Source of the DNA: a virus
Lineage: Duplodnaviria; Heunggongvirae; Uroviricota; Caudoviricetes; Autographiviridae
Virus record (IMG/VR): IMGVR_UViG_2778261646_000012
Direction: 5' to 3' (one strand)
Length of the DNA stretch: 5,187 bases
Below the pieces are notes generated by a model. That model made no database searches. It saw only the letters and a program-made list of their open reading frames with translations, and was not told the DNA's origin. The position numbers and the translations under genes were made by a program. Numbering within the stretch: position 1 is the first letter of the stretch; each line of letters begins with the position of its first letter. Of this stretch, positions 2,235 through 4,841 are shown piece after piece.

Positions 2235-4841
2235 CTACGGCAGCAATTAGAAGACCCAGATGGAGCGAATAAATACCCAAAACTTCAGATAGCAAGATGG
2301 AGAGACAGTTATGATGTAAGAGGTTGGGGGGCTATTGGTGATGGTGTTCATGATGATACATCAGCTCTATCAGAATTACTTTCTGTTGCAACAGGTGGTG
2401 AAAAGATAGATGGGCGAGGGCTTACTTTTAAAGTATCAACTCTTCCAGATGTCAGTCGATTTAAAAATGCTCGTTTTTTATTTGAGAGAATACCGGGTCA
2501 GCCTCTTTTTTATGCTTCTGAAGATTTTATCCAGGGAGAGTTATTTAAAATTACAGATACACCGTGGTACAACGCCTGGACGCAGGATAAAATGTTTGTA
2601 TATGACAATGTCATCTATGCGCCTTTTATGGCTGGAGACCGCCATGGTGTAAATAACCTCCATGTTGCATGGGTTCGCTCAGGAGATGACGGGAAGACCT
2701 GGACAACGCCGGAATGGCTTACAGATTTACATGAAAACTATCCCACAGTTAACTATCACTGCATGAGTATGGGGGTTGTCAGAAATCGCCTTTTTGCTGT
2801 AATTGAGACGCGGACCGTGAGAGGAAATAAACTGCAGGTTGCAGAGTTGTGGGATCGCCCAATGAGTCGCAGCCTTCGCGTTTATGGTGGTATAACGAAA
2901 GCAGCAAATCAGCAAGTCGCTTATATTCGCATTACTGATCACGGATTATTTGCTGGTGATTTTGTCAACTTCTCAAACTCTGGTGTTACAGATGTTACCG
3001 GGAATATGACGGTGACTACTGTTATTGATAAAAATACCTTTACAGTTACGACGCAAAATACCCAGGATGTGGATCAGAATAACGAGGGTAGATACTGGAG
3101 TTTTGGCACATCATTTCACTCGTCACCATGGAGAAAAACCAGTCTTGGAACTATTCCTTCTTTTGTTGACGGAAGCACTCCTGTTACTGAGATTCACAGT
3201 TTTGCGACGATTAGCGATAACAGTTTTGCTGTTGGCTACCATAATGGTGATATTGGTCCACGCGAGCTTGGGATACTCTATTTCTCTGATGCTTTCGGTT
3301 CTCCTGGTAGCTTTGTTCGCAGACGCATACCTGCAGAATATGAGGCGAATGCATCTGAGCCATGTGTAAAATATTATGATGGCATTCTGTATCTGACGAC
3401 CAGGGGGACATTAAGTACTCAACCCGGTAGTTCATTGCACAGAAGCTCTGATTTAGGTACATCATGGAATTCTCTTCGCTTCCCAAATAATGTTCATCAC
3501 TCAAACCTTCCTTTTGCCAAAGTTGGCGATGAGCTGGTTATTTTTGGCAGTGAGCGCGCATTTGGTGAGTGGGAAGGAGGAGAACCTGATAACCGTTATG
3601 CAGGAAATTATCCAAGAACATTTATGACCAGAGTTAACGTCAATGAGTGGAGTCTGGATAATGTAGAGTGGGTTAATGTTACTGATCAGATTTATCAGGG
3701 CGGAATAGTTAACTCTGCGGTTGGTGTTGGTTCAGTTTGTATCAAAGACAACTGGCTGTACTACATTTTCGGTGGGGAAGATTTTCTAAACCCATGGAGC
3801 ATAGGGGATAACAACAGAAAATATCCTTATGTTCACGATGGTCACCCGGCTGATTTGTATTGTTTCAGGGTGAAAATTAAACAGGAAGAATTTGTTTCAA
3901 GGGATTTTGTCTACGGAGCCACTCCTAACAGAACGCTTCCTACTTTTATGTCGACGTCAGGCGTGAGGACGGTTCCTGTACCCGTTGATTTCACAGATGA
4001 TGTTGCCGTCCAGTCACTGACTGTCCATGCAGGTACATCAGGACAAGTTCGCGCGGAAGTCAAACTTGAGGGTAATTACGCCATTATTGCGAAGAAAGTA
4101 CCGTCTGATGATGTTACCGCTCAGAGATTAATCGTTAGCGGCGGTGAAACAACGTCTTCAGCAGATGGTGCAATGATAACGTTGCATGGTTCCAGAAGCA
4201 GTACTCCACGTCGCGCGGTATATAACGCACTCGAACATCTTTTTGAGAACGGAGATGTTAAACCTTATCTTGATAATGTAAATGCTCTTGGTGGTCCGGG
4301 AAACAGGTTCTCGATAGTTTATCTTGGCTCCAATCCTGTGGTTACCAGTGACGGAACATTAAAGACAGAGCCGGTCTCTCCTGACGAAGCATTGCTGGAT
4401 GCCTGGGGTGACGTCAGGTATATCGCTTATAAATGGCTGAACGCTGTCGCTATAAAGGGGGAAGAAGGGGCGAGGATACATCATGGTGTAATCGCGCAGC
4501 AACTTCGTGATGTTCTTATTTCTCACGGACTCATGGAAGAAGAAAGCACAACATGCCGCTATGCCTTTCTTTGCTATGACGATTATCCCGCAGTATATGA
4601 TGACGTCATTACTGGCCAAAGGGAAATGCCGCTGACTGATAATGACGGGAGCATCATTGTTGATGAGGATGATAATCCAGTGATGGTAATAGAAGACATC
4701 ATTGAGCGCGTTGAAATAACGCCAGCAGGATCTAGATGGGGGGTCAGACCTGATCTCTTATTCTATATCGAGGCAGCATGGCAGCGCAGAGAAATGGATA
4801 AGATAAAAGCTAGGTTAGACTTAATAGAAGGGAAGCACTAA
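1896..4841 (+). CDS. Tailspike protein, endosialidase type (endo-N-acetylneuraminidase-like), 981 aa
   Basis: ATG at 1896 with GGAG (1884..1887) 8 nt upstream. The first ~113 aa ([11 protein letters not shown]...[23 protein letters not shown]...IINAAG...VTVQGHSMA...NVLKYDPDQ) closely match the P22 gp9 head-binding domain. The central region carries two sialidase Asp-boxes, and the C-terminus has a Ser-x4-Lys motif as in self-cleaving tail-fibre chaperone domains. Confidence 0.9.
4350..4838 (+). other. C-terminal intramolecular chaperone / autoproteolytic domain (peptidase S74-like), predicted to be released after Ser818
   Basis: VTSDGTLK at aa 816-823, with Ser818 (nt 4347..4349) and Lys823 (nt 4362..4364) spaced as in the Ser/Lys dyad of phage K1F endosialidase and related tail-fibre proteins. 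The ~160-aa acidic C-terminal domain is of the expected size. Confidence 0.6.

Follow-up and report, generated by a model that had tools for sequence, protein, structure and literature searches.

Two Asp-boxes in a predicted CUS-3-type endosialidase tailspike from an Escherichia coli K1 prophage

The stretch of DNA analysed here (the window, 5187 nucleotides) contains a single long open reading frame (ORF), whose product is, to judge from its sequence, almost certainly the GH58 endosialidase tailspike of an E. coli K1 prophage that is both CUS-3-like and P22-like (Lederbergvirus). An original prediction, made from the sequence, had drawn attention to two Asp-box motifs in this tailspike. That finding is correct; it is also ordinary, as the tailspike and its two Asp-boxes are already known. 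The present analysis demonstrates the motifs themselves, the domain architecture of the protein, its homology to characterised endosialidases, and the conservation of its active-site and cleavage residues. It also places the Asp-boxes differently from the prediction: as predicted structural hairpins in a propeller that is recognised by other means.

The tailspike gene and its prophage

The ORF occupies positions 1896–4841 on the plus strand and, in the list of ORFs, runs uninterrupted for 981 codons and a stop. It is an intact tailspike gene of the type that encodes the CUS-3 endosialidase, SiaK1 (ABQ88383, CP000711; Stummeyer et al. 2006; King et al. 2007). The two proteins have the same length, 981 aa, and the same order of domains; they are 98.7% identical, with substitutions at 13 of 981 positions, S309R, G366D and I548V among them. 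In CUS-3 the gene bears the name siaK1 and the product description ‘endosialidase tailspike protein’, and its record lists GO:0016996 (endo-alpha-sialidase activity) under the code IDA and PMID 16689790.

The likeness extends to the DNA around the gene. Window positions 1463–5132 match the CUS-3 prophage of E. coli RS218 at 98.8% identity, and the neighbours are shared: genes resembling arc and mnt, with ant, lie upstream, and neuO with its AAGACTC heptad repeats lies downstream. The upstream immunity region of the RS218 prophage differs from that of the window, as DNA similarity begins only at position 1463. In the window, two genes for Arc-family ribbon-helix-helix proteins precede the tailspike gene, together with an antirepressor gene whose product has KilA-N and P22_AR_C domains; this gene order is the layout of the P22 immI region. 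The tailspikes of P22, Sf6 and HK620 (Lederbergvirus and relatives) likewise go with a P22-like immI context (arc, mnt, ant), and their head-binding domain is homologous to aa 1–113 of the window protein. On the other side, neuO begins at position 4995 and passes into heptads that continue beyond the end of the window; 26 full copies are visible, so that the window has at least 26 against 19 in CUS-3, and the window copy has the end of an IS26 nearby. In CUS-3 the heptad tract of neuO is known as a contingency locus that varies in phase (PMC8653822). A heptad number divisible by three corresponds to phase ON.

The closest reference copy belongs to E. coli O7:K1 CE10, a strain from neonatal meningitis, whose chromosome is 99.96% identical to window positions 128–5125. 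The possibility that the window comes from CE10 itself was considered and rejected on account of one mismatch, one indel, another number of heptad repeats, and the IS26 end that fills positions 1–127 of the window. The tailspike copies themselves differ in state: that of CE10 carries an additional C, placed after window position 3781, and its annotation marks a frameshift, whereas the window copy is intact. As a separate observation, the IS26 end truncates a ClpP-like gene, and the window as a whole resembles a contig assembled from short reads and broken at two repeats.

Among 5426 complete E. coli genomes, 181 carry the catalytic region at 99% identity or more, and every one of them carries it on the chromosome; at the protein level, about 139 phage records match the endosialidase catalytic region.

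Active site, cleavage residue and integrity of the gene

Residues were mapped on full-length gp17 of phage K1F (1064 aa), the GH58 endosialidase endoNF (structures 1V0E, 3GVJ-L and 3JU4; chaperone 3GW6). Five of its residues, H350, R549, E581, R596 and R647, act in catalysis or substrate binding and did not tolerate substitution in a deep mutational scan of K1F (PMC12632334). In the pairwise alignment with gp17 they correspond to His250 (codon at 2643–2645), Arg456 (3261–3263), Glu488 (3357–3359; the catalytic residue E581 of endoNF), Arg503 (3402–3404) and Arg554 (3555–3557), all on the plus strand; each is invariant in an alignment of seven endosialidases that reaches down to 39% identity. 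Further core residues of endoNF (Q330, D331, H527, S528, K585 and N699) are identical in the window protein. The position of endoNF K410 is taken by Gly310; in the same scan, infection by the phage did not depend on K410 (PMC12632334). Finally, the cleavage residue of endoNF, Ser911, which is the first residue of the released chaperone domain, aligns with Ser818, and the record of phage phi92 annotates two mature peptides that meet at the same boundary.

One might still suppose that the gene belongs to a decaying prophage, and that its product binds polysialic acid without cleaving it, or has lost the ability to fold or to assemble. The surroundings lend this some colour: the prophage is damaged, with IS26 interrupting the ClpP-like gene at the left end of the window; IS insertions are found in the tailspike gene of other genomes; and since the closest reference copy, that of CE10, is frameshifted, some prophage copies of the tailspike are decaying. 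It may also be counted in favour of decay that, as Jakobsson is said to have reported in 2007, single substitutions in endoNF can separate binding from cleavage. The window copy itself tells against it: all 981 codons are uninterrupted, conservation extends to all five active-site residues and to the Ser at which the chaperone would be cut off, and every one of the 13 substitutions relative to CUS-3 SiaK1 falls outside the active-site and cleavage residues and outside the Asp-boxes. Decay of this copy is thus quite improbable, and an intact endosialidase gene is the preferred reading.

Within the reading of an intact gene, the 13 substitutions are most likely neutral. Two of them are placed where an effect could be imagined: S309R is next to the position of K410, and G366D is in the beta-barrel. 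Either could alter the processivity of the enzyme, or its handling of polysialic acid that has been O-acetylated by NeuO, an idea that is very unlikely to be right. If it were, the window would carry a functionally distinct tailspike allele, in keeping with the extended neuO heptad tract that adjoins it.

Domain architecture and enzyme family

Six Pfam domains account for the architecture of the protein, all of them scoring well over their cut-offs and all encoded on the plus strand. The head-binding (virion attachment) domain is of the P22 type and takes up aa 1–113 (1896–2234), with a match to Head_binding (PF09008) of 221.5 bits that covers the full profile. The same N-terminus matches the N-terminal domains of Sf6 and P22 tailspikes in the PDB (7sg7, 4e-64; also 2vky, 1lkt and 8tvr), over a span that depends on the entry, from aa 1–118 up to aa 1–140. 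The N-terminal extension of the catalytic part follows at aa 146–212 (2331–2531; End_N_terminal, PF12218, 125.2 bits) and aligns where the chains of 1v0e and 3gvl begin. The catalytic beta-propeller covers aa 213–662 (2532–3881): End_beta_propel (PF12217) matches from 1 to 367 of its 367 positions with 769.6 bits, where the cut-off is 24 bits. Nested in the propeller is a beta-barrel at aa 324–406 (2865–3113; End_beta_barrel, PF12195, 153.3 bits); in endoNF the barrel houses a polysialic acid binding site (PMC12632334). The stalk (tailspike) domain, aa 663–817 (3882–4346; End_tail_spike, PF12219, 260.7 bits), aligns with the C-terminal part of 1v0e. The C-terminal intramolecular chaperone domain closes the protein at aa 818–981 (4347–4838), where Peptidase_S74 (PF13884) matches aa 818–878 with 41.5 bits; aa 698–979 match the C-terminal chaperone construct of endoNF, PDB 3gw6, at E=3.5e-93.

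From aa 145 to aa 817 the protein aligns end to end with K1F endoNF (3gvl, 1v0e; E=0) at ∼65% identity, rising to about 70% over the beta-propeller; the same part also matches the endosialidase of phi92 (4hiz, 1.8e-270). Both Asp-boxes of the window protein, its five active-site residues and its cleavage Ser are shared with the K1F enzyme. Relative to endoNF there is an insertion of seven residues, FVDGSTP, at aa 423–429. The attachment modules differ in kind: that of the window protein is P22-type, that of K1F is of the T7 gp17 type, and the aligned part is 24% identical (PMC5380687). The relation to the P22-like tailspikes is the converse of this. These share the head-binding domain, and their receptor-binding parts are right-handed beta-helix proteins, endorhamnosidases or similar, which act on O-antigen and are not propellers (PMC5380687). 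A P22-type N-terminus exchanged onto an endosialidase catalytic part is a case of modular exchange that has already been described (PMC5380687).

The propeller of the window protein would be six-bladed by homology to 1V0E, since identity to solved structures is about 65–70% over the whole catalytic part. An AlphaFold2 run on aa 146–817 without an alignment gave an unusable model (pLDDT 31.7, pTM 0.21).

GH33 exosialidases also have six-bladed propellers with Asp-box hairpins, and in 2005 Stummeyer reportedly found that the endosialidase shares a Glu and two Arg of the sialidase active site with the exosialidases. The families differ in their reaction: GH33 enzymes act at the end of the chain and retain configuration, whereas GH58 endosialidases cut within the polysialic acid chain and invert it (PMC6254351, which cites Morley 2009).

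If attention is confined to the Asp-boxes, the protein could be taken for a BNR exosialidase of the GH33 type, an enzyme that takes sialic acids off the ends of chains, the more so as it was in bacterial exosialidases that Asp-boxes were originally described (PMC2716378). A search with generic BNR models, which the original prediction had put forward as a check, returns little: BNR_2 (PF13088) matches aa 250–286 weakly, at E=0.0026, and its 17.6 bits fall short of the cut-off of 31.4 and compare with 769.6 bits for the endosialidase-specific propeller model, and the BNR repeat model PF02012 gives no match at E≤1 in the Pfam search of the protein. No GH33 structure occurs among the PDB sequence matches. 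The number of boxes also points the other way: there are two here, as in GH58, and the GH33 rows consulted in Table 2 of PMC2716378 list three or four. An ERIP at aa 197–200, upstream of the first Asp-box, has a superficial likeness to the FRIP motif. Its reading as an (F/Y)RIP motif was considered and discarded, since endosialidases do not keep the motif: the I and the P vary (ERLA in K1-5, ERIV in phi92, ERVA in K1G). Nor does an F or Y precede the RIP. The exosialidase reading thus has a probability close to nil. Of the sialidase-type catalytic domain that had been predicted, the propeller stands, as a member of GH58 and not as a BNR exosialidase of GH33; the Asp-boxes as its mark do not.

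The two Asp-boxes

Translation confirms both motifs where they were originally noticed, on the plus strand. The first, SGDDGKTW (aa 262–269; 2679–2702), is a canonical S-x-D-x-G-x-T-W box; the second, SSDLGTSW (aa 517–524; 3444–3467), is a close variant in which Ser replaces Thr at position 7. The consensus derived from Pfam BNR sequences, (S/t)-x-(D/n)-x-G-x-(T/s)-(W/f/y), permits Ser there (PMC2716378). Looser patterns find no further Asp-box in the protein, and none elsewhere in the six reading frames of the window.

The prediction that two such boxes fit the beta-propeller of a phage endosialidase holds, as both lie at positions homologous to Asp-boxes of the K1F crystal structure. A pattern search of endoNF gives only two matches, at 362–369 and 610–617, and these pair one-to-one with the boxes in the window: box 1 aligns with SGDDGQTW, a hairpin of blade 1 in endoNF, and box 2 with SRDIGQTW, a hairpin of blade 4. 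The published tabulation agrees: for 1v0e (the K1F endosialidase, GH58) it gives a propeller of six blades and two Asp-boxes, one in blade 1 and the other in blade 4 (PMC2716378 Table 2). The predicted spacing of about 250 residues measures 255, and this is explained by what would lie between the boxes: three blades and the nested beta-barrel of 83 residues.

Conservation is uneven between the two. Box 1 is kept in all seven endosialidases of the alignment, as SGDDGxTW in six and as SFDNGNTW in the Mannheimia phage. Box 2 is looser: an Asp-box pattern is present in six of the seven (SRDIGQTW, SADLGENW and STDSGQNW, for example) and is lost in the Mannheimia phage.

A further alternative, that both motifs are chance matches without structural meaning, can point to the mere five fixed positions of the motif and to the departure of the second copy from the strict consensus, and is already refuted, its probability being negligible: the relaxed motif arose in 0.1% of 20 000 shuffles of the protein and two together never did, both boxes align with those of the solved homologue, and the seven-endosialidase alignment keeps them as just described.

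That the boxes are real does not make them diagnostic. In propellers, Asp-boxes have a structural role, in contacts from blade to blade, and ligand binding by them is highly unlikely; they are found as well in GH74 enzymes, in Vps10 receptors and in folds other than propellers (PMC2716378). The two boxes of the window protein would be structural hairpins, neither catalytic nor specific to sialidases, and Asp-boxes alone offer no sound ground for calling a sialidase. Because such boxes occur beyond the sialidases, and because the BNR_2 match stays below its threshold, the assignment rests on homology over the whole domain. The original prediction of a polysialic acid depolymerase is therefore supported by the score of End_beta_propel and the match to 1V0E (E=0), and no longer has the Asp-boxes as its carrier.

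Proposed mode of action

The scheme that follows draws on the literature for K1F and CUS-3, from which the proposed fold of the window protein, its assembly into a trimer, the removal of its chaperone, its enzyme activity and the inversion of configuration are carried over by analogy. The P22-type N-terminal domain would dock a trimeric spike onto the virion tail, which would be P22-like. The propeller, aided by binding sites in barrel and stalk, would bind the alpha-2,8 polysialic acid of the K1 capsule and cleave internal alpha-2,8 linkages with inversion, using a putative active site of His250, Arg456, Glu488, Arg503 and Arg554. Cutting of the capsule in this manner would allow the phage to tunnel to the outer membrane at the cell surface. 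The C-terminal domain probably chaperones folding of the trimer and would then be released by a cut at Ser818. In this scheme the Asp-box hairpins of blades 1 and 4 would stabilise the packing of the blades; they are expected to take no part in catalysis or in substrate binding.

Implications

Crystal structures and a full mutational scan already exist for a homologue of the window tailspike, and the window protein itself is an allele almost identical to an enzyme that has been characterised; the main value of the analysis is thus a correct annotation. The presence of this prophage in the window identifies the source as a K1 strain of E. coli with a CUS-3-like phage as its lysogen.

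Integrity of the tailspike gene

The window copy of the tailspike gene (1896..4841, plus strand) preserves its 981-codon reading frame, unlike that of E. coli CE10, the O7:K1 reference genome. CE10 carries an extra C (5155 of the CE10 sequence L003) relative to window ~3781-3782, reading GAAGACTTTT against GAAGATTTT; the reference is otherwise identical, and RefSeq annotates the CE10 tailspike as ‘frameshifted’. The CE10 gene may be a genuine pseudogene, or the extra base may be an error of sequencing. Insertions of the IS3 or IS21 family are found in the same gene of several related prophages, where they separate the head-binding domain from the catalytic part: phiv205-1 (3228-5549 of its sequence, L002) is one such case, and so are the E. 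coli genome matches H82, H91, H92 and H94. Lysogens thus often carry an inactivated copy of this gene.

In the encoded protein, a tetrapeptide ERIP (window 2484-2495, aa 197-200) lies 62 residues upstream of the first Asp-box, SGDDGKTW, and is similar to the (F/Y)RIP motif of exosialidases. A comparison of six endosialidases from E. coli phages shows its Arg conserved in all of them and the Ile and Pro not conserved; the likeness is probably a coincidence. Arg309-Gly310 (window 2820-2825) includes a difference from CUS-3 of strain RS218, which has Ser at position 309. The adjoining Gly310 is the position aligned with K410 of endoNF, the phage K1F endosialidase; K410 was reportedly suggested at one time as a substrate gate.

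Flanking genes and probable prophage mosaicism

Downstream, neuO (polysialic acid O-acetyltransferase; window 4995-5187) begins with an ATG at 4995, followed by a tract of AAGACTC heptads. The ON/OFF phase of this gene is set by whether the heptad number is a multiple of three. In the window 26 full copies and one partial copy are visible, a lower bound, as the tract continues past the window end; at least 26 copies thus compare with 19 in CUS-3 of RS218 and ~18 in CE10.

At the other end, an IS26 terminus occupies window 1-127, its terminal inverted repeat ending at 127; this stretch is 100% identical to copies of the element carried by >5000 plasmids. This insertion has cut a prophage ClpP-like protease gene, leaving a truncated remnant ORF (109..306, minus strand), whereas the CE10 gene is complete (537 nt).

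A region resembling P22 immI follows (306-1795), consisting of two divergent Arc-family ribbon-helix-helix genes (306..596, minus strand; 604..804, plus strand), together with an antirepressor (866..1795) that carries KilA-N and P22_AR_C domains. It matches CE10 and phiv205-1 and departs from CUS-3 of RS218, to which DNA similarity starts only at 1463. This pattern of sequence matches points to mosaicism among CUS-3-like prophages.
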